A stretch of 32,000 nucleotides of DNA from Candidatus Saccharimonadota bacterium (GTDB lineage: Bacteria; Bacteroidota; Bacteroidia; Cytophagales; Amoebophilaceae): positions 930,001-962,000 of the forward strand of contig NZ_OZ034918.1 of assembly GCF_964030745.1 (NCBI RefSeq). The letters are read 5' to 3'. Below the pieces are notes generated by a model. The model was given only the letters and a program-made list of their open reading frames with translations, had not been told where the DNA came from and did not search any database. Made by a program: the position numbers and the translations under genes. Positions within the stretch are counted from its first letter, which is position 1. Each line of letters begins with the position of its first letter. Below, piece by piece: positions 6,638 through 30,579 of the stretch.

Positions 6638-6827
6638 TTATGGCCGTCAATAAAAGAATTAGGCACGCAGTAAAAGTAATGAAAATATCTATTTCCCAGC
6701 GGGAAAATCATAAACTCAGCCCGCTGCGCGTGCTTCAAACAAAATGATTTTCTGATCCGCTGGAAAATAGATATTTTAAAAACTACAATTTACTGAAAGT
6801 GCCTAATTTCTTTATTGACGGCTATAA
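6638..6827. mobile_element. MITE-like hairpin element, family A1, copy 2 (190 bp)
   Basis: TIRs TTATGGCCGTCAATAAAAGAATTAGGCAC / GTGCCTAATTTCTTTATTGACGGCTATAA. The core is colinear with the reverse complement of copy 1. Confidence 0.75.
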
Positions 6828-6942: not shown

Positions 6943-7765
6943 ATGCCTAAGATAAATGCACTACCTATTGGTTATTCAGATGTCAAATCAGTTATTGACA
7001 CAGGCTATTACGTAGATAAAACTCGGTATGCCCAAGCGTTAATTGAAAAGAGAAACCCTATCTTTATAGCTCGGCCTCGTAGATTTGGCAAATCTCTCTT
7101 TATTAATACACTCGCTACCATTTGTAACGGAGAACAAGAAATATTTAAAGATTACCATATAGGTAAACCAGAGAACGGCTATCAGTGGAAGAAATATCCA
7201 CTGATTAACCTAAACTTTTCTAGCCTGAACAACAATCCTAATAAACTAGAAGGCAGCTTAAAAAATGAGTTGAGTAGAATAGCTGATGCATATAAGGTAG
7301 CCATTCAAGATCGAGATATACAAGATCGACTAAAGGATTTGGTTCGCCTACTCTCAAATTTAGGCAATGGCTATGAACCTAAGCCAGTCGTGTTGATAGA
7401 CGAGTATGACTCGCCTATTGTTAATTTAACCAAAGGCTCCGACCTAGAAAAAGCCAATATCAAGGTCATGAAAGACTTCTTTATGACTTTAAAGTCACTA
7501 AATGACCACTTTCAGCTCACCTTTATCACTGGTGTAAGCAAATTTAGCTTATCCGATGTTTTTTCAGGCGCTAATCATTTAAAAGATATTACCATTGATG
7601 CATCTGCTGATGCCATGTTTGGTTATACACAACAAGAAATCCTAACTATTTTCTCAAAAAATTTAGAATATATTGCTAAAAATTGGAGTGAAAAAGCAAA
7701 TAAAAAAATCACTGAATCAGAAGTAATGAGATCTATTGCAACTTATTACAATGGTTATAAATTTT
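6943..7765 (+). pseudogene. AAA-ATPase-like / PD-(D/E)XK (PDDEXK_9-type) family gene, N-terminal segment interrupted by an IS
   Basis: ARPRRFGKS and VLIDEYDSP motifs are shared with the intact paralog at 24824-26671. The reading frame ends in a TGA created at the IS junction. Confidence 0.8.
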
Positions 7766-9070
7766 GAGGCCGTTGCAATAGACCTTTACGATTTGCCATA
7801 AAAAGTATCTTTTTATTTTTTAGAAGAAGGTAAAAAAAGGTTAAATTCTATTGATTTTTTTAGGTATTGATGCTTAAAACTTTTAATAATATTGTGTATG
7901 TCGCTCAAGCAAACTAAGCAATTAAGTTTTTCAGATATTTCCGCCAATAAGCGTAAGTGCAAACACACTTTCTTTGATCAAATCAACAAGCTAGTTAATT
8001 GGTCAGTAGTAGAAAAAGCACTCCGATTACATTATCCTAAAGGTTTACGTTTATCAGGCAAACCGGCCTATAGTCCTCTGCTTCTATTCAAAATGCTATT
8101 GCTACAGACGTGGTATGGCTTGAGCGACTATGCAGTCGAAGAAGAAGTGAATGATCGTATCACTTTTAGCAGATTTTGTGGTATTTCGATGGATAGTTCT
8201 GTTCCAGATCATAGTGTACTAAGTAGATTTAGAACTACCCTTACAGAGAAGAATGCTTTAGAAAAGTTATTGCATATCATTAATAATCAGCTATCTGATC
8301 ATGGTGTATTGGTTCAAAACGGTTCAGCAGCTGTAGATGCTTCTATTACCCCTACCCCTAGACGCCCTAAAGGTAAAAAAAGCTACGATCTGCATGAAGA
8401 TGGAACCATAACCACAGCTGAAAGTTATCAAAAAGGAGTAGATCCAGAAGCAAGTTGGATAAAAAAAGGCCATCATCTCTACTATGGCTATAAGCGGCAT
8501 GTTCTTGTGGAAAGCAAAGAGGGGTTGGTGCTAGCCGTAGGTACCACAAAAGCATCTAGTCATGATAGTGGGCATTTACAGGTATTATTGGATAAAGTAA
8601 GGCTAAAATCAGGCAGCAGACTCTATGCAGATAAAGGCTATAGCGGGTCGCCCAACGAAAATTTACTAAAGAAAAAGAAGTTAAAATCAGCTATTCAGAA
8701 AAAAGGGGCTAGAAACAATCCTTTATCACCCACTGCTAAACGGTTTAATAAATTAGTATCTAAAACGCGCTATAAAGTAGAACGGGTATTTGGAAGTATT
8801 AAAAGTTGGTTCCGTAGCTCAGGAGCCAGATATATAGGCCTTGCTAAAACCCATACGCAACATGTTATGGAGGCAATAGCCTATAACTTATATAGGTCCC
8901 CAAACATCATATTAAGAGGTATCTAGGGGAATGGTGTGTCCAAAATAGATTGAAAATGACTAAAAAATCAGTAAATAAATAGTTTTATACCACTATAACA
9001 TCAAATATGGCAAGGAAATAACCCTGGAAGATTAATCAAAATTATACCTTCAACCTATCACAACGGCCTC
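7766..9070 (+). mobile_element. IS5-family insertion sequence (about 1.3 kb)
   Basis: Imperfect terminal inverted repeats GAGGCCGTTGCAATAG / CTATCACAACGGCCTC. It is flanked by the direct repeat ATTTT (7761-7765 and 9071-9075). It contains one DDE transposase ORF. Confidence 0.85.
7892..8926 (+). CDS. IS5-family DDE transposase
   Basis: InsH-like N-terminal region (LLFKMLLLQTWYGLSDYAVEEEVNDRITFSRFCG). DDE-region motifs AVDASI, YADKGY and VERVFGSIK. Confidence 0.85.
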   Translation: MCMSLKQTKQLSFSDISANKRKCKHTFFDQINKLVNWSVVEKALRLHYPKGLRLSGKPAYSPLLLFKMLLLQTWYGLSDYAVEEEVNDRITFSRFCGISMDSSVPDHSVLSRFRTTLTEKNALEKLLHIINNQLSDHGVLVQNGSAAVDASITPTPRRPKGKKSYDLHEDGTITTAESYQKGVDPEASWIKKGHHLYYGYKRHVLVESKEGLVLAVGTTKASSHDSGHLQVLLDKVRLKSGSRLYADKGYSGSPNENLLKKKKLKSAIQKKGARNNPLSPTAKRFNKLVSKTRYKVERVFGSIKSWFRSSGARYIGLAKTHTQHVMEAIAYNLYRSPNIILRGI

Positions 9071-9075
9071 ATTTT

Positions 9076-9713: not shown

Positions 9714-10358
9714 GTGCGACCTGAAAGTCTTCTACCGTATTGTTTAAAAGGGGAGACATTAAATTGTGAACAAAAAAACAATGAATCATCCCCTTATTAA
9801 ACCAGATGTTTTGCCATCTGAGCCTACGTATCGGTGCGAATGGGGCAACCGATTGGTGCTAAGCGATACAGACAATGAACCTCTTCTTCTTGAAAAGAAG
9901 GAAATGCCGCATCGCGAGATGGGCATAAACTGCAAGCATCATGCGGTTGGAGGGCTAGGCTAGTGATATGGTGAACATAAGTGAAGCTTTAAGCAAGTGC
10001 CGTTATGATAAAAGAGCTAAAGATGCTGACAAGCTCTAACCAAAAAGGTATGTGGGTAGGATACATTTTAGATTTCTGGATGTACGCAAACAGTCAACCC
10101 ACCGGCATATTGAAGCCACCTAAGTCACTCAAGTATGATAGAAGGAACAGGGTAAGCCTGTATGCTCGCCTTATTAAAAGGCAGGTAGACCGCAAGGAAA
10201 ACTGTTGAGCATGCAGGTAAAGGAAAGTGGAGCAAGCGAATGCCACTCTGTAACGGAATGGATAGGGTTTGTAATATTAACCCATGCGAAAGCAGGCAGA
10301 CTTCCACTAGGTCCCTCGTGACAAGAAACTTTGTTAACCACTTAAGGGAGGAAAGCAG

Positions 10359-11900
10359 ATGATTACCTGTCTAAACACAGTAAGTGCACCTACCGATAAC
10401 CCCTCGGCATGGAACCAGCTACCCTGGAAAAAGTGTCAGAAAGTTGTTATGCGGCTACAAAGACGTATTGTTAAGGCGGTCCAAAAAGGAAGATGGGGTA
10501 AGGTAAAAGTCTTACAACATCTTCTAACACGGTCTTTTAGTGGGAAAGCCTTGGCGGTAAAAAGAGTAACGGAAAACCAAGGCAAAAGGACATCAGGAGT
10601 AGATCGTCAACTATGGTCCACTGATAAGACAAAATTTCAAGGCATCAAGCAATTAAAACAGAGAGGATACAAGCCTTCTCCGCTCAAACGGATCTACATT
10701 AGTAAAACCAATGGCAAAAGAAGGCCTCTTGGAATACCTACGATGAAAGACAGGGCCATGCAAGCACTGTATCTGTTTGCGCTGGAACCGATAGCTGAAA
10801 CAACCAGTGATCGACATTCCTATGGCTTTAGACCGAAAAGATCTTGCGCAGATGCTATCAAAGCGAGTCATATATTGCTTGCAGCAGATAAACATCCGCA
10901 ATGGATATTAGAGGGTGACATCAAAGGCTGTTTTGATAACATCAACCATCAATGGCTTATTAAGCACATTCCTATGGAAAAGCGGATGCTTACTAGTTGG
11001 CTAAAAGCAGGTTACATAGAATCGAAAAAGCTGTATCACACAACTGCAGGTACCCCTCAAGGCGGTATCATCTCTCCAGTATTAGCTAATTTGACTTTAG
11101 ATGGACTCGAAAAATTATTAGAAGAACGCTTTGGAAAAATTGGCAGTACAAAAAGAGTAAAGATCAGAAGTGGAGTAAACATAATCCGGTATGCGGACGA
11201 CTTCATTATTTCAGGAAACACACGTGAAGTACTGGAAAATGAAGTCAAACCACTACTAGAGTCTTTCCTTTCTGAAAGAGGTCTTACTCTATCAGAAGAA
11301 AAGACAAAGATTACTCATATTAATACAGGGTTCGATTTTCTTGGTTGTAATGTACGTAAATACAATAAGAAATTGATCATAAAACCTTCAAAAGAAGGTA
11401 TTAAGAACATGCTTAAGAAAGCGCGTACATCAATAAAAACAAACATAGCAAATACACAAGCAATAATGATTAAATTACTCAATCCTCTATTAAGAGGCTG
11501 GGGTAACTATTATCGCCATGTATGCGCAAAGCAGGCTTTTAGAAAAATAGACCATGAAATTATGCAGTCACTATGGAAATGGGCAAAGAGAAGACATCCA
11601 TGCAAAGGATTACGTTGGATAAAGCACCGTTACTTTAAAGTAAGGGGTCTACGCCAGTGGGTCTTTGCTTCATCTATAGCAGGAAACCATTTAAAGGAAA
11701 TACGTTTACTAAAACTAAGCGATATACCTATAAGACGACATGTTAAAATCAGAGCTGATGCAAATCCTCTAGATATAAGATGGAAAAAGTATTTTGAAGA
11801 AAGAGCGATGCGTACAAAAATGTTGCAGAGCCCATGCTCAAAAGAAGGTTCACTACTACTAGTGTCACCACAAAAGAAACCAAAAGTTGAAAACATATGA
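10359..11900 (+). CDS. group II intron reverse transcriptase/maturase (no recognisable HNH endonuclease domain)
   Basis: RT motifs RPLGIPTMKDRAMQ, YGFRPKRSCADA, GTPQGGIISPVLANL and RYADDFII. Maturase domain X motif LLRGWGNYYRH. Confidence 0.92.
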   Translation: MITCLNTVSAPTDNPSAWNQLPWKKCQKVVMRLQRRIVKAVQKGRWGKVKVLQHLLTRSFSGKALAVKRVTENQGKRTSGVDRQLWSTDKTKFQGIKQLKQRGYKPSPLKRIYISKTNGKRRPLGIPTMKDRAMQALYLFALEPIAETTSDRHSYGFRPKRSCADAIKASHILLAADKHPQWILEGDIKGCFDNINHQWLIKHIPMEKRMLTSWLKAGYIESKKLYHTTAGTPQGGIISPVLANLTLDGLEKLLEERFGKIGSTKRVKIRSGVNIIRYADDFIISGNTREVLENEVKPLLESFLSERGLTLSEEKTKITHINTGFDFLGCNVRKYNKKLIIKPSKEGIKNMLKKARTSIKTNIANTQAIMIKLLNPLLRGWGNYYRHVCAKQAFRKIDHEIMQSLWKWAKRRHPCKGLRWIKHRYFKVRGLRQWVFASSIAGNHLKEIRLLKLSDIPIRRHVKIRADANPLDIRWKKYFEERAMRTKMLQSPCSKEGSLLLVSPQKKPKVENI

Positions 11901-11945
11901 TGGACAAGCCGGTTCTAGAACAACAGGACTTAGATAAGGGGCTCA

Positions 11946-12019
11946 AGCGTAGTGCGGGGAAACTCGCAAGCTGCGTTTCTAAGGGGGAGGAGGATAGCAA
12001 TACCCTCCTCCTACCTAAC
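11946..12019 (+). ncRNA. group II intron domains V and VI
   Basis: DV 11946-11977 has an AGC triad at its base, 7-bp and 6-bp helices, a GAAA tetraloop and a 2-nt AG bulge. DVI 11983-12015 is the helix GGGGGAGGAGG/CCTCCTCC(T)-A-CC with an unpaired A at 12013, 7 nt from the 3' end. Confidence 0.8.
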
Positions 12020-12194: not shown

Positions 12195-12576
12195 GTATCT
12201 ATTCACCACTGCGGCTAAAATTTACTTTTCTGCCATATCCATGCATCACTATGGCTACACCTTTGACCTACACCTTTGACCTACACCTACCTCTTTGTAT
12301 CCATACATCACTATGGCTACGTTTTTCTGAAAAAGCAAGTGGCTAATCCATTACCAGCCGCCGCGTCTCCTTCGATAAAAAAATGGCGCTCTAGTAAAAC
12401 ACTAACAGCTGAGCGATATGTTTTTTAGCGGATTAGAAAATCGTCTGTTTGAAGCTCGCTTGCGAGCTGAGTGCACGATTTTCCCGCTAAAAAACATATC
12501 GATTCATCTATTTACTATCGGGCCAGACTTTTTATCGAAGGAGATAAGGGGCCAAGCCAGAGGCGTGAATAGATAC
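12195..12576. mobile_element. 382-bp MITE with an A2-type hairpin core
   Basis: Perfect 12-bp TIRs GTATCTATTCAC (12195-12206) / GTGAATAGATAC (12565-12576). Flanked by the 8-bp direct repeat AAAATAAA (12187-12194 and 12577-12584). The A2 core lies at about 12357-12552. The left arm holds internal 13-bp tandem ACCTTTGACCTAC x2 and duplicated ATCCAT(G/A)CATCACTATGGCTAC. Confidence 0.8.
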
Positions 12577-17579: not shown

Positions 17580-17750
17580 TCAGATTGGTTGCAGGGTTTT
17601 CATCAGGTCTTCATCAACTAGGCCCCATACCTTCCTATCCTGCACTCGTTCCTCTATCAATAAGCTATACCGAATACGCCTGTAGCTGGGCCCCTTATCT
17701 CCTTCGATAAAGGCTGCTGTCATATGAAGCGGGGTATTACCATTATTATT
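17580..17750 (-). pseudogene. frameshifted 3' continuation of the ankyrin gene (18th repeat plus C-terminal tail)
   Basis: Removing one A from the A6 run gives VNLKNNNGNTPLHMTAA... This has exactly the spacing of VNAQDKDGNTPLH in the preceding repeats. The frame stays open to the TGA at 17580-17582, 9 bp from the lolE-like stop. Confidence 0.6.
17676..17711. repeat. solo terminus of the A2 element family
   Basis: ACGCCTGTAGCTGGGCCCCTTATCTCCTTCGATAAA matches 30013-30048 at 35 of 36 positions. Confidence 0.7.
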
Positions 17751-19740
17751 TTTTCAAATTGACTAAAACTCCTTTAGCGCTTCGTAACATATTTATTATG
17801 GTTGTAAAACCATGTTGCGCTGCTAAATGAAGCGGGGTCTTACCATCCTTATCTTGCGCATTGACTAAAATCCCCTTTTTTTCCAGCAACCTGGCACAAA
17901 TATTTTCATAGCCATATGTCGCTGCTAAATGAAGCGGGGTCTTACCATCCTTATCTTGCGCATTGACTAAAATCCCCTTTTTTTCCAGCAACCCGGCACA
18001 AATATTTCTATAGCTATGTGCCGCTGCCCAATGAAGCGGAGTATTACCATCCTTATCTTGTACATTGACTAAAGTCCCCTTCTCTTTCAGTAACCTGGCA
18101 CAAACCTTTCCACGGCCATATCTCGCTGCCAGATGAAGCGGAGTATTACCATACTTATCTTGTACATTGACTAAAGTCCCCTTCTCTTTCAGTAACCTGG
18201 CACAAACATTTACATGGCCATATTGCGCTGCCACATGAAGCGGGGTATAACCATCCTCATCTTGCTCATTGACTAAAGTCCTCTTCTCTTTCAGTAACCT
18301 GGCACAAACATTTACATGGCCATATTGCGCTGCCACATGAAGCGGGGTATAACCCTCCTTATCTTGCGCATTGACTAAAATCTCCTTCTCTTTCAGTAAC
18401 CTGGCACAAACCTTTCCATGGCCATATTGCGCTGCCCAATGAAGCGGGGTATAACCATCCTTATCTTGCGCATTCACTAAAATCCCCTTTTTTTCCAGCA
18501 ACCCGGCACAAACCTTTCCATAGCCATATGCCGCTGCCCAATGAAGCGGGGTCTTACCACCCTTATCTTGCGCATTGACTAAAATCTTCTTCTCTTTCAG
18601 TAACCTGGCACAAACCTTTCCATGGCTATATTGCGCTGCCCAATGAAGCGGGGTATTACCATCCTCATCTTGCTCATTGACTAAAGTCCTCTTCTCTTTC
18701 AGTAACCTGGCACAAACATTTACATGGCCATATTGCGCTGCCACATGAAGCGGGGTATAACCCTCCTTATCTTGCGCATTGACTAAAATCCCCTGATTTT
18801 CCAGTAACCTGGCACAAACATTTACATGGTCATATTTCGCTGCTAAATGAAGCGGGGTCTTACTATACCCATCTTGCGCATTGACTAAAATCCCCTGATT
18901 TTCCAGTAACCTGGCACAAACATTTACATGGCCATATTGCGCTGCCACATGAAGCGGGGTATAACCCTCCTTATCTTGCGCATTGACTAAAATCTCCTTC
19001 TCTTTCAGTAACCTGGCACAAACATTTACATGGCCATATTGCGCTGCCACATGAAGCGGGGTATTACCCTCCTTATCTTGCGCATTGACTAAAATCTCCT
19101 TCTCTTTCAGTAACCTGGGACAAACATTTACATGGCCATATTGCGCTGCCACATGAAGCGGGGTATTACCCTCCTTATCTTGCGCATTGACTAAAATCTC
19201 CTTCTCTTTCAGTAACCTGGGACAAACATTTACATGGCCATATTGCGCTGCCACATGAAGCGGGGTATAACCCTCCTTATCTTGCGCATTGACTAAAATC
19301 CCCTGATTTTCCAGTAACCTGGCACAAACATTTACATGGTCATATTTCGCTGCTAAATGAAGCGGGGTCATATAATTGTTATCCTTAGCATTCACATCAA
19401 TACTATTTCTAAAAGAAGACAGCAATGCTTGTACCATATGATGATCATTATTCAACGCTGCCAAATGCAACGCAGCATATCCTTCATCATTCAGTTTATT
19501 GATTACCAGAGGATCATTGCCAAAATGAGGCAATGTAAATTCTATACTCTCTAGAGTGTTGTTCTCCGGCCAGTTAGCAGAGTCCATCACAAACTGATGA
19601 AGAAGGTACCCATAACGATATTTTTGCTTTAAAAGTATGATTGTTAGCGGCTCAGGGCTACTATTAATAGCTTTTTCATATTCTGCGCCATATCTAGAAA
19701 TGTGCTTACAAGCAATAAATAATAAAAGAAATATCAACAT
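17746..19740 (-). CDS. ankyrin repeat protein (17 repeats of 34 aa), signal/lipoprotein-like N-terminus
   Basis: TPLH(V/L/W)AAxYGHxxVCxRLL...LVNAQD is repeated 17 times. The N-terminus MLIFLLLFIAC is signal-like. Confidence 0.9.
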   Translation of the reverse strand: MLIFLLLFIACKHISRYGAEYEKAINSSPEPLTIILLKQKYRYGYLLHQFVMDSANWPENNTLESIEFTLPHFGNDPLVINKLNDEGYAALHLAALNNDHHMVQALLSSFRNSIDVNAKDNNYMTPLHLAAKYDHVNVCARLLENQGILVNAQDKEGYTPLHVAAQYGHVNVCPRLLKEKEILVNAQDKEGNTPLHVAAQYGHVNVCPRLLKEKEILVNAQDKEGNTPLHVAAQYGHVNVCARLLKEKEILVNAQDKEGYTPLHVAAQYGHVNVCARLLENQGILVNAQDGYSKTPLHLAAKYDHVNVCARLLENQGILVNAQDKEGYTPLHVAAQYGHVNVCARLLKEKRTLVNEQDEDGNTPLHWAAQYSHGKVCARLLKEKKILVNAQDKGGKTPLHWAAAYGYGKVCAGLLEKKGILVNAQDKDGYTPLHWAAQYGHGKVCARLLKEKEILVNAQDKEGYTPLHVAAQYGHVNVCARLLKEKRTLVNEQDEDGYTPLHVAAQYGHVNVCARLLKEKGTLVNVQDKYGNTPLHLAARYGRGKVCARLLKEKGTLVNVQDKDGNTPLHWAAAHSYRNICAGLLEKKGILVNAQDKDGKTPLHLAATYGYENICARLLEKKGILVNAQDKDGKTPLHLAAQHGFTTIINMLRSAKGVLVNLKK
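17749..19491 (-). repeat. 102-bp tandem repeat array encoding the ANK units
   Basis: The same motif recurs at a 102-bp spacing (for example TATTGCGCTGCCACATGAAGCGGGG at 18221 and 18323). Several adjacent units are identical or nearly identical at the nucleotide level. Confidence 0.9.
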
Positions 19741-20309: not shown

Positions 20310-21989
20310 ATGGTTCAAAGATATACAGTTACCGCTGCGCTTCCCTATGCAAATGGGCCGGTTCACTTAGGTCATGTGGCAGGAGCCTACCTTCCTGCTG
20401 ATATTTATGTTCGCTATCTAAGACAAAAAAAGGCTACTGTAGTTTTTATCAGTGGCTCTGATGAACATGGTGTACCTGTGGTGATTCGTGCCCAACAAGA
20501 GGGGTCTACGCCTCAAAAAGTAGTGGATAAATACCACACACTCATTAAAGAATCACTAGAAGGGCTGGACATCAGCTTTGATATCTTTGCAAGAACTTCC
20601 TCACCTACCCATTATGAGACAGCCGCTGACTTTTTTAAGGAATTGCATCAAAAAGGCATATTTGAGGTATATGAAACAGAACAATACTACGATCCTGTTT
20701 GTAACCAATTTCTATCTGATCGTTACATAAAAGGCAGTTGTCCTAGCTGTAACCATCCAGCTGCTTATGGTGATCAGTGTGAAGCTTGCGGCAGCACACT
20801 AAGTCCAGAAGAGTTGATTGATCCCATTTCTGCTATTAGTGGCGCAAAACCTATTTTACGGTCCACTAAACACTGGTATCTTCCTCTGAATAAGTATGAA
20901 AATTGGCTTAAAAAATGGATTTTAGAAGAGCATAAAGACTTTAAAACCAATGTATATGGTCAATGCAAGGGGTGGTTAGACCAAGGGTTACAACCCCGTG
21001 CCGTTACCCGAGATTTATCTTGGGGCATTCCTGTTCCGCTGCCCGAAGGAAGCGGAAAAGTACTGTATGTCTGGTTCGATGCACCCATTGGCTATATCAG
21101 TGCAACCAAAGAATGGGCTCAAAAACAACAGACAGATTGGGAACCTTTTTGGAAAGATCCGAGTACCAAACTGGTCCATTTTCTTGGAAAGGACAATATT
21201 GTATTTCATTGTATTATATTTCCTGTGATGCTCAAAGCCCATGGCCAGTTTATTTTGCCGCAGCAGGTGCCAGCCAATGAATTTTTAAATCTAGAAGGGC
21301 AAAAAATTTCCACATCGCGTAACCATGCGGTTTGGCTCCATGATTATTTAGCAGATTTCCCTGGTAAAGCAGATGTGTTGCGCTATGTACTCTGTACCAT
21401 TGCACCAGAAAACAAAGACAGTGACTTTACCTGGCAAGATTTTCAGGATAAAAACAATCGTGAACTGGTAGCCAATCTTGGCAATTTGGTCCATAGAACT
21501 TTAAGTTTGGTCCATCAATACTTTGGTGGATTAGTGCCACCTAGTATGGCCCCTAATGAAGCCGATCAGGCTGTACTGACTGCCTTAATGACTTCTTTTA
21601 CAGCAGTAGGGAATGCCATAGAACAGTTTAAATTTAAAGAAGCGCTTCAATTATGTATGGGTTATGCTACGTTGGGGAATAAATATCTAACCGATAGAAG
21701 ACCCTGGCATTTGGTAAAAAGCAATCCAGAAGAAGCTGGAACGGTATTGCATGTTACCTTGCAATTGATTGCTACTGTAAGCTTGTTGATCAAACCTTTT
21801 CTGCCTACCACCAGTGATAAAATAGCCCATATGCTCGGGTTACAAGAAAGCGGTTGGCATGGTGTGGATGTCAGTAAACTGGTACAACCAGGTGATGCTT
21901 TGGCGTCTCCCACTGTATTGTTTGAAAAAATTGAAGATGATGCCATCGAAGCACAAAGAAAAAAATTAGATCATAATGAAACATGTTGA
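20310..21989 (+). CDS. metG: methionine--tRNA ligase (short form lacking the C-terminal tRNA-binding domain)
   Basis: HIGH-type motif PYANGPVHLGH, zinc knuckle CPSCNHPAAYGDQCEACG, KMSKS-type KISTSR. Confidence 0.92.
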   Translation: MVQRYTVTAALPYANGPVHLGHVAGAYLPADIYVRYLRQKKATVVFISGSDEHGVPVVIRAQQEGSTPQKVVDKYHTLIKESLEGLDISFDIFARTSSPTHYETAADFFKELHQKGIFEVYETEQYYDPVCNQFLSDRYIKGSCPSCNHPAAYGDQCEACGSTLSPEELIDPISAISGAKPILRSTKHWYLPLNKYENWLKKWILEEHKDFKTNVYGQCKGWLDQGLQPRAVTRDLSWGIPVPLPEGSGKVLYVWFDAPIGYISATKEWAQKQQTDWEPFWKDPSTKLVHFLGKDNIVFHCIIFPVMLKAHGQFILPQQVPANEFLNLEGQKISTSRNHAVWLHDYLADFPGKADVLRYVLCTIAPENKDSDFTWQDFQDKNNRELVANLGNLVHRTLSLVHQYFGGLVPPSMAPNEADQAVLTALMTSFTAVGNAIEQFKFKEALQLCMGYATLGNKYLTDRRPWHLVKSNPEEAGTVLHVTLQLIATVSLLIKPFLPTTSDKIAHMLGLQESGWHGVDVSKLVQPGDALASPTVLFEKIEDDAIEAQRKKLDHNETC

Positions 21990-24787
21990 ATAAAAAGCAA
22001 ATCAAAAATTGGCTCTATCGTTTTGGTTATGATACAGATTATGCTAACAGCCCTCTTTCGAAAGCGATTTGTGATGAGCAATTTTTAGGAGAAGCGAAGT
22101 CGCGCACCGCAGAATACTCAGCTGTATTTGAGGAGCATAGACAAGCTTCGACACCAAAATTGCCATTAGAAATCGAGTTTCGAAAGAGGGCTCATGCCGA
22201 TCGCTCTCTATTGGGCAATAAAGGATATGGGTTGGCACAAATGTCCTATTTAGGCTTTCCGATTCCTCCGGGATTTACCATTACAACCGATGGTTGTAGA
22301 AACTATTATGATCAGGGTCAAACGCTTGCTGAAACCATTTGGGATCAGGTGGTTGCAGAGATTAAACTGCTTGAAAAGGCTACAGGCAAGCAGTTTGGAT
22401 CTGCTCCTTTCCCCCTCCTTTTATCAGTCCGTTCTGGTGCTAAAACTTCTATGCCAGGTATGATGGATACCCTGTTGAATCTCGGTCTAAACGATGAAAC
22501 CACAGAACTATTGGGCCATGCCACCCAAGATGCTAGATTTGCCTATGATAGCTATCGTCGCTTTATAGAAATGTATAGCAGCATCATTATGGGCATCGAC
22601 CATCATCTATTTGTAGAGGTAGTGGAGGAGATGAAAGCAGCAGAAAATGTCCACCATGAGGCAGGGCTGGGTCTGGGCGCGCTCCATGCAGTTATTGATC
22701 GCTATAAAAAAATAGTCTGGGCACATACCGGTACTACCTATCCCCAGGATGTCTTTGAACAGTTGCGCAAGGCCATAGTGGCCATTTTTGCATCTTGGAA
22801 TGGTCCAAGAGCTGTTACCTATCGAACACTAAACCATATAAATGATCAAGCAGGCACAGCGGTTACCATTCAATCTATGGTTTTTGGCAATAGGGGTACA
22901 GATAGCCTAACAGGCGTGCTATTTACCAGAAATCCATCCACTGGTGAACCTACTTTATTTGGTGAATATCTAATCAATGCACAAGGCGAAGAATTGGTTT
23001 CGGGTCTAGTCACACCTCGGCAAATTACCAGACAAGGGCGACAAGCCATTCAAGATAAGCAGGCCTCCTTGGAGGAGGCATACCCTGTTGTTTTTAACGA
23101 GCTGCGTCACTTGGCTATGGAGTTAGAAAGCCATTTTAAGGAGATGCAAGATATTGAGTATACTGTTGAACAGGGTAAATTATGGCTGTTGCAGACCAGA
23201 AATGGCAAGCGAAGTGCTAAGGCAGCTGTTAAAATAGCTGTTGATATGGTGTGCGAGGGTAAGATAGATGCAGAGGAAGCGGTACAAAGAATAGATTATA
23301 ATCAGATAGAACAGCTATTGCATGCTACATTAGATGCGCACCAATCTATAGAAATATTAACCCATGGGCTGCCCGCTGCACCAGGTGTGGCCTCTGGGGT
23401 AATTGTTTGTGCACCAGAAGAAGTAGCCGCTCTTTCAAAAACTGAAAATGTCATATTGGTTAGAGGAGAAACCAGTCCAGATGATATAGGTAGTATGGCT
23501 AAGGCAGCAGGTATTTTAACCACCAAGGGGGGCATGACAGCACATGCTGCCGTAGTGGCACGGGGTATGGGCAAGCCTTGTATATGTGGTGCACGTGGTA
23601 TTACGATAGATATGGAAAATAGGCTGCTGCTTATTGGTCAGACAAAGCTTCCAATGGGTAGTTATGTAACTATTGATGGTACCACGGGAGCAGTTATAAA
23701 GGGCAAAGTGGCCACTGTTCAGCAAAAGCCTTTTCCTGAATTTGTAACCTTTATGGGGCTGGTAGATCAGCTCAAAAGGATGGAGGTAAGGGCCAATGCA
23801 GAAACCGTACAGGATGCAACAGTAGCGTTATCCTTTGGCATTGCAGGTATAGGTCTTTGTAGAACAGAGCATATGTTTTTTAATGTTGATGACATGCGTC
23901 TGTTTAGAAAAATGATCTTAATGAGCGATGCAACAGCACGACTGAATAGCCTAAGGGAATTGCTGGTGGTACAAAAAAGAGATTTTAAAGCGCTTTTTCA
24001 AACCTTACATGGTCTACCCATTACGGTCAGATTACTAGACCCCCCTTTACATGAATTTTTACCCCACCATCCAAAAGAGATAGCTGAACTTGCGTTGCAA
24101 CTAGGTTGTCCACTTGATGAAGTAGCAGGGCGTATAGAGGAGCTGGATGAAGTAAATCCAATGTTAGGCCATCGTGGCGCTAGGTTGGCCATTACTTTTC
24201 CAGAGATGTATGCCATGCAAGTTCAAGCGCTATTTGAGGCGGCATTGGAGGTAGAGCAGGTAGCATTAGAAATTATGTTGCCCCTTGTTTTTGATGCCAA
24301 AGAGGTAATTTTTATTAAAAATATCATAGAAACAGTGCATCAAAAAACAGCCCCTCACATCCCCTATAAGGTTGGGGTAATGATAGAGCTGCCAAGAGCA
24401 GCCTTGCAGGCGGCAACCATTGCACCATTGGTCGATTTTTTCAGTATAGGAACCAATGATTTAACCCAAACCACCCTTGGTATTTCACGTGATGATGGGG
24501 CCAAATTTCTAGACAGTTACCAACAAAAAGGGTTGCTTCAGGATGACCCATTTGTTACGTTGGATCGGGAAGGGGTTGGCGCATTGATTCACATGGCGGT
24601 AGTAGAGGGTAGGTCGGCTAATCCAAATTTAAAAATAGGCATTTGTGGCGAACATGGAGGCGATCCGCGCTCTATTGAATTTTTTGAGTCGATAGGGATA
24701 GATTATATATCCTGTTCTCCTTATAGAGTAGCTATTGCAAAGCTGGCTGCTGCAAAGGCTATGCGCTTTACTGATGTCCGCCGATAA
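21983..24787 (+). CDS. ppdK: pyruvate,phosphate dikinase carrying a 48-codon in-frame repeat-element insertion
   Basis: N-terminal KNWLYRF and LLGNKG motifs, phosphohistidine motif TTKGGMTAHAAVVARGMG, C-terminal PEP/pyruvate domain (GICGEHGGDP). The start overlaps the metG stop (ATGTTGA). Confidence 0.92.
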   Translation: MLNKKQIKNWLYRFGYDTDYANSPLSKAICDEQFLGEAKSRTAEYSAVFEEHRQASTPKLPLEIEFRKRAHADRSLLGNKGYGLAQMSYLGFPIPPGFTITTDGCRNYYDQGQTLAETIWDQVVAEIKLLEKATGKQFGSAPFPLLLSVRSGAKTSMPGMMDTLLNLGLNDETTELLGHATQDARFAYDSYRRFIEMYSSIIMGIDHHLFVEVVEEMKAAENVHHEAGLGLGALHAVIDRYKKIVWAHTGTTYPQDVFEQLRKAIVAIFASWNGPRAVTYRTLNHINDQAGTAVTIQSMVFGNRGTDSLTGVLFTRNPSTGEPTLFGEYLINAQGEELVSGLVTPRQITRQGRQAIQDKQASLEEAYPVVFNELRHLAMELESHFKEMQDIEYTVEQGKLWLLQTRNGKRSAKAAVKIAVDMVCEGKIDAEEAVQRIDYNQIEQLLHATLDAHQSIEILTHGLPAAPGVASGVIVCAPEEVAALSKTENVILVRGETSPDDIGSMAKAAGILTTKGGMTAHAAVVARGMGKPCICGARGITIDMENRLLLIGQTKLPMGSYVTIDGTTGAVIKGKVATVQQKPFPEFVTFMGLVDQLKRMEVRANAETVQDATVALSFGIAGIGLCRTEHMFFNVDDMRLFRKMILMSDATARLNSLRELLVVQKRDFKALFQTLHGLPITVRLLDPPLHEFLPHHPKEIAELALQLGCPLDEVAGRIEELDEVNPMLGHRGARLAITFPEMYAMQVQALFEAALEVEQVALEIMLPLVFDAKEVIFIKNIIETVHQKTAPHIPYKVGVMIELPRAALQAATIAPLVDFFSIGTNDLTQTTLGISRDDGAKFLDSYQQKGLLQDDPFVTLDREGVGALIHMAVVEGRSANPNLKIGICGEHGGDPRSIEFFESIGIDYISCSPYRVAIAKLAAAKAMRFTDVRR
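22049..22192. mobile_element. palindromic MITE-like element, family B, copy 1, in frame within ppdK (144 bp)
   Basis: Perfect 15-bp TIRs AGCCCTCTTTCGAAA / TTTCGAAAGAGGGCT. The interior is nearly identical to the reverse complement of 30187-30329, including a 46-nt identical block TTGAGGAGCATAGACAAGCTTCGACACCAAAATTGCCATTAGAAAT. Confidence 0.85.
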
Positions 24788-24823: not shown

Positions 24824-26671
24824 ATGGATTACAAAAAAGCAGATCAAGCACTAAAAAGAACGAAACGACCAGGAGATAGTATAGAAACTGTGCAAATCCC
24901 CATTGGCAGTGCTGATGTCAAAGAGATGATCGCCCAAAAGTTGTATGCAGATAAAACAGCCTATATCACTAAGCTCTTTAAAACGAATGGCATCTATTAC
25001 TTTTTTGCAAGACCACGTAGATTTGGTAAATCTCTGCTCCTAGATACTATAGATCAAATAGCAAAAGGTAATAAAGCATTGTTTAAAACATGTGCTATTT
25101 ATAAAGACTCAACCTATACGTGGCAAAAATATCCTGTTATTTGGTTGAATTTGTCGGAATTAGCTAGAGATAATAGTACAGAAAAACTACAAAACAACTT
25201 AATAGATGTATTATATACCATTGCTAAAAACTATACTATAGATAGCAGTGCAATAGATCCTATTATAGGTGAGCCGACGGTAGAGGGAACACTAGGTAAG
25301 TTGATTGATGCATTAAAAAAATTAGGCAATGGCTATGCACCACAGCCCATTGTGTTAATAGACGAATACGACAGTCCATTAATTTCCGCTGAAAAAGAAC
25401 AATATGAAAAGGTGCTTTCTGTCCTGAGTTCCTTTTTTAAAGTTTTAAAAGCCCGTCAGAAGGACTGTAAATTTATTTTTGTAACGGGTGTCACTAAATT
25501 TCACTTGTCTGGTCTTACCTCAGGGGCCAATTCGGCTAATGACATATCTTTGCATGAAGATTATGCTGGAATGTTGGGCTATACAGAGGAGGATATAGAT
25601 AAACTATTTTTTAATGATAAGCAAGATAACATTTGGTCCGTTATACAAAATCTACAAGTAGAGTGCGGAAAAGGTGAGGGGTATACATCTGCGCAATTAA
25701 AGCAAGAGCTGAAGGATTATTATAATGGCTATTATTTTAGTCGAAGTGCTAAGCATGGTGTGTACAACCCAGATTCCATATTACGATTCTTTTATGCAAA
25801 AGATTTTGAGAATTTCTGGTTTAACTCGGGAAGTCCTACCATCTTATTGCAACAAATGAAGCAAAACATAGATCGGTTTAATATGGATTGGGATAAATGT
25901 AGTTTCCCAATAGATAAGATACGGTTTAAGTTGGTACATCCTTCGCTCCATGAAATGCCTTTACTTCCCTTGATGTACCAAACGGGATACCTCACGATGG
26001 ATCTCTCCCCATCTCATGTGCAAGATAAAAATAATCTCACCTATTATTTAAAGTTTCCCAACCAGGAAGTAAAATCTGCTTTAAAACTTATATTATCTGA
26101 TTTTATAGCTCAAAAACAACAAGAAGCAGGAAGAGCATATAGCGCGTCTATGCTAGATGATGTAAGAACGGATAACTGGTCTGCTTTCTTTAACCGCATT
26201 AGAAGTAGTTGTTTGGCCAAAGCAGGTTATCGCTTTCTAGATAAATCTGAAAGGAGCTTTCAGGGTGCTTTATATTCCTTGCTCAATGGTGCTTTTCATG
26301 CTACCTATGATACGTGGGCCAGTGCTGAAAGAGATAGTGGCATAGGCCGTACAGATATCATTATGGAGGACCAATATAATGACAGCAGAACCATCTATAT
26401 TTTTGAGTTAAAAGTAGGTAAATCAGCCTTAGAAGCGCTCGAGCAAATAGGTAATAAAGATTATAGTATTCAATATGATTTATGCCATAAGAAGGTACTC
26501 ATAGGCTTAAAATGTGATGCTGTAAAGCTTAATATTACGGAGGCAGTTGTTGAAGTACATCAACGTGATGCGCAGCATACTTTTCAGGTGATGCCACGTA
26601 AAAAATTCGCCGTTAATGCTGTTGGCTATTTTCAAGAAATAGGAGCACAAAACAACGATGTCTTCAAGTAA
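24824..26671 (+). CDS. AAA-ATPase-like domain / PD-(D/E)XK nuclease (PDDEXK_9-type) family protein, intact paralog
   Basis: ARPRRFGKS, VLIDEYDSP, YYNGY and NSGSP motifs. C-terminal GRTDIIMED...IYIFELKVGK (D...E-x-K). Confidence 0.8.
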   Translation: MDYKKADQALKRTKRPGDSIETVQIPIGSADVKEMIAQKLYADKTAYITKLFKTNGIYYFFARPRRFGKSLLLDTIDQIAKGNKALFKTCAIYKDSTYTWQKYPVIWLNLSELARDNSTEKLQNNLIDVLYTIAKNYTIDSSAIDPIIGEPTVEGTLGKLIDALKKLGNGYAPQPIVLIDEYDSPLISAEKEQYEKVLSVLSSFFKVLKARQKDCKFIFVTGVTKFHLSGLTSGANSANDISLHEDYAGMLGYTEEDIDKLFFNDKQDNIWSVIQNLQVECGKGEGYTSAQLKQELKDYYNGYYFSRSAKHGVYNPDSILRFFYAKDFENFWFNSGSPTILLQQMKQNIDRFNMDWDKCSFPIDKIRFKLVHPSLHEMPLLPLMYQTGYLTMDLSPSHVQDKNNLTYYLKFPNQEVKSALKLILSDFIAQKQQEAGRAYSASMLDDVRTDNWSAFFNRIRSSCLAKAGYRFLDKSERSFQGALYSLLNGAFHATYDTWASAERDSGIGRTDIIMEDQYNDSRTIYIFELKVGKSALEALEQIGNKDYSIQYDLCHKKVLIGLKCDAVKLNITEAVVEVHQRDAQHTFQVMPRKKFAVNAVGYFQEIGAQNNDVFK

Positions 26672-29998: not shown

Positions 29999-30026
29999 AG
30001 GAACTTCATTACACGCCTGTAGCTGT

Positions 30027-30367
30027 GCCCCTTATCTCCTTCGATAAAAAGTCTGGCCCGATAGTAAATAGCTGAATCGATATCTTTTTCAGCGGGAAAA
30101 TCGTGAACTCAGCCCGCAAGCGGGCTTCAAACAGACGATTTTCTAATCCGCTGAAAAAGATATCGATCAGGTGTTCGTGTTTTACTAGGCCTCTTGCAAA
30201 ACCTATTTCTAATGGCAATTTTGGTGTCGAAGCTTGTCTATGCTCCTCAAATACATTAAGTATTCTGCGGTGCTCAACTACACTTCTCCTAAAAATTGCT
30301 CATCACAAAGTAGGTTTTGCAAGAGGCCTACTAGAGCGCCATTTTTTTATCGAAGGAGACGCGGGGC
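30027..30367. mobile_element. A2-family hairpin element, copy 2, carrying a nested family B element
   Basis: TIRs GCCCCTTATCTCCTTCGATAAAAA / TTTTTATCGAAGGAGACGCGGGGC. The core is colinear with the reverse complement of 12357-12552. It measures about 195 bp once the nested insert is removed. Confidence 0.8.
30187..30329. mobile_element. palindromic MITE-like element, family B, copy 2 (nested in A2)
   Basis: Perfect TIRs AGGCCTCTTGCAAAACCTA / TAGGTTTTGCAAGAGGCCT. It interrupts GTGTTTTACTAGAGCGCC (intact at 12381-12398 on the other strand) and is flanked by a short duplication (TACTA/CTA; exact length is ambiguous). Confidence 0.85.
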
Positions 30368-30397
30368 TGATAATGATAAGAAAAGCTATTGTGGCCG

Positions 30398-30419
30398 CAT
30401 TCCTTTATCGGTGGCCACA
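30398..30419. repeat. solo A1-type TIR fragment
   Basis: ATTCCTTTATCGGTGGCCACA compared with ATTTCTTTATCGGTGGCTATA at 2281-2301. Confidence 0.45.
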
Positions 30420-30579
30420 AGTGCTGCGTATACCAATATTCCATGTAAAAAATGCTGTTCTACTTAATAGTCAATAATATTTATTTCTTAAGCCCGCGCT
30501 ATTGCAAGGACAGATGCTACTGCATAACCTTTATACAAAATTAACCGCTAATAGGTTAAAAACAATGTGGACACGTAAT

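Follow-up and report, generated by a model that had tools for sequence, protein, structure and literature searches.

A 144-nt palindromic element was found to lie in frame within ppdK, the gene for pyruvate,phosphate dikinase (PPDK), in the Cardinium endosymbiont of Philonthus spinipes, a member of the phylum Bacteroidota with a chromosome of 1.09 Mb. The stretch analyzed (hereafter, the window) comprises 32,000 nt (positions 930,001 to 962,000 of contig NZ_OZ034918.1, assembly GCF_964030745.1; 40% GC), and the element occupies positions 22049-22192 of its forward strand. As detailed below, this segment of ppdK very probably represents a transposable element of the Rickettsia palindromic element 1 (RPE-1) family, non-autonomous and capable of forming a hairpin, that is resident in Cardinium and close to some copies in Wolbachia. 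The first-pass annotation, made from the sequence letters, had proposed an RPE-like palindromic mobile element, and this proposal was borne out by a match to the RPE1 profile TIGR01045 (34.5 bits), an empty site, 3-bp target duplications, and in-frame copies in Wolbachia and Tisiphia.

Host gene and anatomy of the element

The ppdK open reading frame (ORF) spans positions 21983-24787 of the forward strand (934 codons plus stop, with its ATG at 21983; NCBI WP_342265220.1), and the insert constitutes codons 23-70. The product was identified as PPDK by the profile TIGR01828, with a score of 1166.9 bits against a cut-off of 843, and by alignment with PDB entry 1KBL (E = 4e-270). Comparison with the PPDKs in the PDB indicated conservation of LLGNKG, of the ATP-grasp residues, of the phospho-histidine motif, and of GICGEHGGDP near the C-terminus; GGMTAHAAVVARG and MQDIEYT..LQTRNGKR were among the motifs kept.

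The element starts 66 nt past the ATG, that is, exactly at codon 23, lies between the strand WLYRF and LLGNKG, and can be read without a stop in the ppdK frame as 48 codons, giving SPLSKAICDEQFLGEAKSRTAEYSAVFEEHRQASTPKLPLEIEFRKRA. It is bounded by a left terminal inverted repeat AGCCCTCTTTCGAAA (22049-22063) and a right one TTTCGAAAGAGGGCT (22178-22192), whose bases were complementary at 15 of 15 positions. The earlier description of a 48-codon element beginning on a codon boundary and carrying perfect 15-bp terminal inverted repeats was thus confirmed. Translation through the insert is predicted to give the tryptic peptides AICDEQFLGEAK, TAEYSAVFEEHR, and LPLEIEFR. The family as a whole displayed a length of 142-144 nt, perfect terminal inverted repeats of 15-19 bp, no frame longer than 48 aa, and no transposase gene. 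An Rfam scan of the window detected no family at the element, its matches being restricted to a group II intron and three tRNAs, and Pfam held no model for the element peptide.

Absence of the insert from other PPDKs

The solved PPDKs from Clostridium symbiosum, maize, Flaveria, and Trypanosoma started to align with the window protein only at its residues 71-74, which correspond to their own residues 12-22, and in an alignment of 64 PPDK homologues none had more than four residues aligned in the insert columns. The excess length noticed at first pass between the N-terminal strand and the LLGNKG motif, relative to characterized PPDKs, was therefore real. The closest relative, P0001 (72% identical), is encoded 3' of metG as in the window and also lacks the segment, reading GYDTDYSYGHPSILGNKG at the insert site (longer stretch, WVYRFGYDTDYSYGHPSILGNKG). 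Removal of 49 codons from the window protein gave GYDTDYANADRSLLGNKG, equal in length to P0001, and the net gain of ppdK over P0001 was accordingly 49 codons, or 147 nt, which equals the 144-nt element plus a 3-bp target duplication; the gap was placed here by protein alignment and not by nucleotide alignment with the ortholog in L001. The 22 codons 5' of the insert were 73% identical to P0001, as compared with 72% for the entire N-terminal region. Judged from these comparisons, in which neither P0001 nor any of the 64 homologues carried the 48-aa segment, the insertion in ppdK is lineage-specific, as had been supposed, and the host ORF is intact.

These results, together with the palindromy of the entire segment and the covariation of its arms, the empty site, and the copies with target duplications of their own in unrelated contexts and genomes, all described below, refuted the alternative that the segment is a loop native to PPDK, either ancestral or specific to the lineage, from which the other copies were taken as fragments, an idea that had nothing but the shared sequence in its favor.

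Hairpin structure and covariation

The ppdK copy and a second copy in the window, at about 30 kb, were each predicted to fold into a single long hairpin, with DNA folding energies of -38 and -36 kcal/mol (z = -8 and -10) and RNA folding energies of -67.7 and -66.6 kcal/mol (z = -9.3 and -10.5), respectively, and no shuffled sequence matched the stability of either. Across ten copies, the consensus hairpin comprised 50 pairs, with 96% of cells paired. Compensatory double changes were observed at 12 of these pairs, mostly within the terminal 15 bp; position 3, for instance, is C:G, G:C, or A:T depending on the copy. Shuffled controls gave only 4.5 +/- 1.4 such pairs (0 of 500 reached 12), and slid controls gave 0-2. 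This covariation therefore indicated either that the arms are homogenized via the hairpin or that pairing is selected. Meanwhile, the compensatory variation in the terminal 15 bp is evidence against the outermost bases being recognized strictly by their sequence.

Membership in the RPE-1 family

The isolated insert peptide matched the NCBIfam profile TIGR01045 (palindromic element RPE1 domain, 48 positions) with 34.5 bits and E = 1.4e-8, above the cut-off of 30, its residues 3-47 aligning to profile positions 3-47. A sister copy in contig L003 scored 42.6 bits and aligned end to end (1-48 of 48), and the whole protein P0141, encoded in the same contig, scored 36.2 bits. Peptides of other copies gave 23-26 bits after repair of their frames, and the reverse-strand frames of the copies gave no match to this profile.

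An exhaustive profile search retrieved 166 representative proteins at E <= 1e-3; a single-sequence six-frame peptide search, which was word-indexed and not exhaustive, had returned P0141 only and missed even the PpdK of the window. The peptide profile search found short ORFs in Cardinium, in Wolbachia wCori, and in the Wolbachia of Pentalonia nigronervosa. Internal in-frame modules were found in a wCori protein annotated as PhlB (575 aa), in a PD-(D/E)XK nuclease of Wolbachia wCfeT (904 aa), in a Wolbachia RuvX, in two Tisiphia proteins, and in one protein labelled 'RPE1 domain-containing protein' by JGI. In addition, the automatic PGAP name 'palindromic element RPE1 domain-containing protein' was already attached to P0148, an 80-aa ORF of the source genome, and to one ORF of Cardinium CP101107.1. 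RPE-1 was originally confined to the genus Rickettsia, and the host here is Cardinium. Since the RPE1 profile also matches Wolbachia and Tisiphia, however, the restriction to Rickettsia appears to be outdated and gives no ground for exclusion.

A side observation concerns P0271 of Candidatus Tisiphia (786 aa), which carries a full RPE1 module at about residues 496-555 and, in its C-terminal part, the RPE-like fragments 'ALSNDACNFISEKY' and 'AELECPKRP'. This arrangement suggests several or decayed insertions in one gene.

Empty site and target duplications

The second copy of the element (30187-30329, reverse strand, 143 nt, with ACT on both flanks) was 87.6% identical to the ppdK copy (blastn E = 1.6e-45 in a search within the window). 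The position given for this copy by the first-pass annotation and its closed frame both stood, a TAG being present in the homologous frame together with indel shifts; to its description as intergenic it was to be added that the copy is nested within another palindromic repeat. This host repeat (30012-30364, forward strand) measures about 207 nt without the element, and alignment with the filled site identified an uninterrupted paralogue of it at 12361-12567 on the reverse strand, which represents the empty site. The empty site reads TTTTACTAG followed by AGCGCC, and the filled site reads TTTTACTAG, 140 nt, and TACTAG, followed by AGCGCC. The difference of 146 nt is accounted for by the element (143 nt) and a duplicated triplet, which reads ACT on the forward strand, and an insertion event was therefore demonstrated. 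The host repeat family (12361-12567, 30012-30364, and a partial copy at 17676-17711), which has inverted ends GCCCCTTATCTCCTTCGATAAAAA and an internal perfect stem of 20 bp, itself looks like another miniature transposable element with inverted repeats (MITE).

Perfect 3-bp flanking duplications were found at 8-9 of 15 aligned copies from Cardinium and Wolbachia, where the chance expectation is 1/64 for each, and the flanks of three further copies agreed at two of three positions. The duplicated triplets were AGT, ATT, ATT, AAT, AAT, TGT, AGG, and ATG, plus AAT in Wolbachia. On the strength of these duplications and of the net gain of 144 + 3 nt over P0001, a 3-bp duplication is also presumed at the ppdK copy, where its now degenerate copies would be AAC (22046-22048, Asn22) and CAT (22193-22195, His71); a single change separates either triplet from AAT, which is the duplication at three other copies.

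Copies in other genomes

Copies of the element, dispersed both between genes and within ORFs, were found in Wolbachia and in no fewer than four Cardinium genomes. In a scan of one genome per species, an 18-mer from the conserved core hit five loci in the Cardinium of Nabis limbatus, which thus has at least five copies, and two in Cardinium cBcalN2; nine further unrelated loci were taken as chance matches, of which roughly 17 are estimated for an 18-mer. In the mite-type Cardinium CP101107.1 (ENA ERZ1030128), six copies lay within a 20-kb stretch (L021, CP101107.1:30164-50346), that is, one per 3.4 kb, and the ENA contig L022 carried a copy at each of its ends. A 23-mer of the conserved core gave 0 matches in a metagenome scan, and the plasmid collection gave no blastn match and one non-significant tblastn match (E = 4). 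At 10722-10741 of the window, 20 nt match the element end; this match falls within the reverse transcriptase ORF of the group II intron, where it encodes RPLGIPT, and was treated as chance. The ppdK copy was 91% identical to other Cardinium copies and 85% identical to the Wolbachia copy, and the copy in the flea Wolbachia wCori showed 84-85% DNA identity to Cardinium copies.

Two side observations were made in these genomes. In mite-associated Cardinium (CP101107.1), there may be hundreds of copies of the element, and assemblies from short reads may be interrupted by it. In the Cardinium of Nabis limbatus, several copies of the intergenic type share 12-36 nt with the beginning or the end of long open frames (L010:894-1850, L009:3479-4639, and L007:5280-6725), so that the element may provide start or stop codons or change gene ends there.

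Coding frame of the element

Most copies in Cardinium are 142-143 nt long, frame-shifted, and intergenic; in these typical copies the two halves are open in different frames, and none is open throughout. By contrast, the four 144-nt copies found (in ppdK, L003a, L021c, and wCori) were all open in frame +0, including those of L021c and wCori, which are intergenic. The open frame therefore belongs to the 144-nt form and is not a repair made in ppdK, and the earlier view that it was peculiar to the ppdK copy had to be abandoned. The 144-nt form equals the 48-position RPE1 profile in length. Moreover, because 144 nt plus a 3-bp duplication make 147 nt, its insertion never shifts the frame of the host gene. 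As an observation in its own right, in L003:2494-3978 (ENA ERZ1030128, same organism as CP101107.1) the called 494-aa ORF P0141 joins a truncated ArnT/PMT_2-like glycosyltransferase to NusB; this fusion passes through an open 144-nt copy, which bridges two unrelated genes in one frame. As for ppdK, it is most likely that the insert is translated through and that enzyme activity is retained.

Points against the assignment and proposed mechanism

Several observations weigh against the reading of the ppdK segment as an RPE-1 element in a working gene. Within the whole PpdK, TIGR01045 reached only 27.2 bits, just below its cut-off of 30, and the flanks of the ppdK insert differ today (AAC versus CAT, in frame as Asn...His). 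The copy number in the source genome rests on the window, with its two copies, and on P0148 elsewhere in the genome. In the AlphaFold model of PpdK, the ATP-grasp domain is confident, with a predicted local distance difference test (pLDDT) score of about 80-98 across most of residues 71-300, and residues 20-67 are weakly helical with a pLDDT below 50, a range in which the conformation and exposure of the insert are not readable from the model. A search of about 150 kb of sequence from Cardinium and Wolbachia revealed no transposase or insertion sequence (IS) with matching ends, and the closest ortholog of ppdK is frameshifted, a point to which we return below.

In the mechanism that we propose, a putative trans-acting transposase would cut at the terminal inverted repeats (AGNCCTCTT...) and insert the element with a 3-bp target duplication. 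In ppdK, the target would have been a codon for Asn, probably AAT, located between WLYRF (strand beta-1) and the helix with LLGNKG. Together with 3 bp, the 144-nt form amounts to 49 codons and leaves the downstream frame of ppdK unchanged, and, as one frame of this form is inherently free of stops, ppdK would still encode the whole of PPDK, with one N-terminal loop enlarged by a 48-aa excursion. The element would be selfish and merely tolerated in ppdK.

A wider scenario, which is put forward tentatively as a real possibility short of probable, is that RPE-1-type elements are true cut-and-paste MITEs that make 3-bp duplications, and that the 144-nt form was shaped to be frame-neutral and stop-free for life in genes. 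The element would have moved recently across phyla among co-infecting arthropod symbionts, from Wolbachia or other Rickettsiales to Cardinium or in reverse, and would then have given rise in Cardinium to the non-coding intergenic subfamily of 142-143 nt. If this were true, the end sequence and the length of the duplication would serve as a handle for finding the long-sought RPE transposase.

As to the mobilizing enzyme, the window itself offers a candidate. An IS5-family insertion sequence (7765-9071, forward strand; ends TGAGGCCGTTGCAATAG and CTATCACAACGGCCTCA) encodes an intact 344-aa DDE transposase (NF033581), and the element might be a MITE derived from this resident IS and moved by its transposase. 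The ends of the IS, (T)GAGGCCGTTGCAATAG, resemble those of the element, (T)AGGCCTCTTGCAAAAC, with AGGCC..TTGCAA in common, and some groups of the IS5 family produce duplications of 2-4 bp. The resemblance, however, is weak and extends to about 12 of the 15 bases, an indel included, no internal similarity between element and IS was seen, and the duplication of the IS, assessed by comparison with an intact paralogue of the gene that it interrupts, is ambiguous (TTT or ATTTT). Furthermore, strict recognition by sequence is hard to reconcile with the compensatory changes that the element shows in its terminal 15 bp. We consider this derivation unlikely; it is in any case compatible with RPE-1 membership and concerns the mobilizing enzyme only. 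The gene split by the IS is an AAA-ATPase_like gene, with its N-terminal part at 6943-7767 and its C-terminal part from 9072, and the intact AAA-ATPase paralogue of 615 aa occupies 24824-26671.

The state of the host gene bears on a second alternative, namely that ppdK was already non-functional or dispensable in this lineage and that the insertion was a neutral hit in a decaying gene. The closest ppdK ortholog (L001:1537-4177, Logan SRR575900; also L002, ENA ERZ27241754) is split across three frames by two frameshifts; it retains 75-82% amino acid identity along most of its length and the metG-ppdK synteny of the window, and is probably a young pseudogene of a related symbiont. Loss of ppdK is therefore possible in the clade, and the gene is not strictly essential there, contrary to its earlier labelling as essential-type. 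The insert peptide also appears to evolve about neutrally, the ratio of nonsynonymous to synonymous substitution rates (dN/dS) among 144-nt copies being 0.4-1.6, and the RNA hairpin of -67.7 kcal/mol at codons 23-70 could hinder translation. On the other hand, the 934-codon ORF is intact in a genome of 40% GC, its dN/dS against the L001 ortholog was 0.19 over 830 codons, all of its catalytic motifs are kept, and it scores 1167 bits with TIGR01828. As judged from these ratios, the enzyme part of PpdK is under purifying selection, and the insert peptide bears no clear sign of such selection. Moreover, Cardinium lacks pyruvate kinase, which leaves PPDK as the sole enzyme joining phosphoenolpyruvate (PEP) and pyruvate (PMC12560110). 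Prior decay of ppdK is thus held to be decidedly improbable, and tolerance of the element by a working gene is preferred.

The Cardinium PPDK has been reported to be of Rickettsiales (Midichloria-like) origin (PMC12560110), and RPE1-type elements are typical of Rickettsiales, so the element might have entered ppdK in a Rickettsiales donor and reached Cardinium along with the acquired gene. This route is very improbable, as both the closest ortholog, which shares the metG-ppdK synteny, and all 64 homologues lack the insert, the ppdK copy is nearer to other Cardinium copies (91%) than to the Wolbachia copy (85%), and the independent copies with duplicated targets, together with the empty site, show activity within Cardinium.

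Other features of the window

A group II intron was detected at 9802-12019 on the forward strand, with Rfam matches for domains D1-D4 at 9802-9954 and for the 3' end at 11943-12019, and the 513-aa ORF within it on the same strand (10359-11900) encodes a group II intron reverse transcriptase/maturase, in agreement with its NCBI name. A further palindromic repeat family, the third, measures about 190 nt, has the inverted ends TTATGGCTGCCGATAAAGAAATTTGGC, and is represented by two copies inverted to each other (2114-2303 and 6638-6827); they lie about 4.3 kb apart and flank radical-SAM and ABC-transporter genes, and a related fragment occurs at 30394-30420. An ankyrin-repeat protein of 664 aa is encoded on the reverse strand (ORF 17746-19740; repeats at 17708-19437). 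Its ORF contains at least 15 tandem units of 102 bp (34 aa) that are 72-89% identical to one another, which suggests recent expansion or homogenization.

Comparison with known systems

The element resembles RPE-1 (Ogata et al. 2000; TIGR01045) in its size of about 144-150 bp, in that the whole element forms a long hairpin, and in its many dispersed copies. Like RPE-1, it inserts in frame into housekeeping genes and adds about 48 aa, the peptide of the L003 copy matching the RPE1 profile end to end, and Tisiphia, which belongs to the Rickettsiaceae, has related copies in frame. It differs in that the host is Cardinium, of the Bacteroidota, and not an alphaproteobacterium, that its nearest DNA relatives are in Wolbachia and not in Rickettsia, and that most Cardinium copies are frame-shifted and intergenic with lengths of 142-143 nt. 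In this comparison, clear 3-bp target duplications are recorded here for the Cardinium and Wolbachia copies.

The habit of in-frame insertion has been described for the RPEs of Rickettsia and for the Wolbachia palindromic elements (WPEs) (PMC10969869, PMC3733652, PMC4224334). The WPEs are protein-coding palindromic repeats, in frame and stop-free, in addA, addB, and priA of Wolbachia (Ogata, Suhre & Claverie 2005, as cited in PMC4224334 and PMC3733652). The 48-aa modules found in frame in the Wolbachia PD-(D/E)XK nuclease and RuvX are alike, the likeness being to the WPE as described in those citing papers and not to a WPE consensus.

The only MITEs described in Cardinium are MITECca01 and MITECca02 of strain cOegib (Halter et al. 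2022, PMC9769881), which are non-autonomous, flanked by inverted repeats, abundant, and mostly intergenic. MITECca01 is about 240 bp long, derives from the IS982-family element ISCca4, was reported in cOegib only, and rarely interrupts genes (PMC9769881). The present element has neither its length of about 240 bp nor a restriction to cOegib; it measures 142-144 nt, is present in Wolbachia and in four or more Cardinium genomes, is homologous to RPE1, and has no parent IS that was found, and on the published description of MITECca01, which includes ISCca4-like inverted repeats, the two are thus set apart. Transfer of ISRpe1 among Cardinium, Rickettsia, Wolbachia, and Amoebophilus (PMC2791219, PMC9997750) provides a precedent for the exchange of transposable elements across phyla among co-infecting arthropod symbionts. 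ISRpe1, however, is an autonomous IS with its own transposase, whereas the element described here has no coding capacity for one.

No report of RPE-type elements in Cardinium was found in the literature searched, though automatic PGAP names flag them. The phenomenon as such is known from RPE-1 in Rickettsia and WPE in Wolbachia; what is new is the host phylum, and the copies bear a clear 3-bp duplication signature.

Significance

To our knowledge, protein-coding palindromic elements have so far been regarded as peculiar to Rickettsia and some Wolbachia. The element in ppdK extends their host range to the Bacteroidota, and a new host phylum implies transfer across phyla; the 84-85% DNA identity with the copies of flea Wolbachia is evidence that passage between phyla among co-resident endosymbionts extends even to non-autonomous elements. 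A transposase-type mechanism for RPE-1 is indicated by the clean empty site and by the 3-bp duplications that recur among the copies, which narrows the search for the enzyme. For annotation, the 934-aa PpdK is to be read as a normal PPDK plus a 48-aa selfish insert and not as a novel enzyme variant. Finally, since PPDK is the sole link between PEP and pyruvate in Cardinium, tolerance of the insert bears on the energy metabolism of the symbiont.

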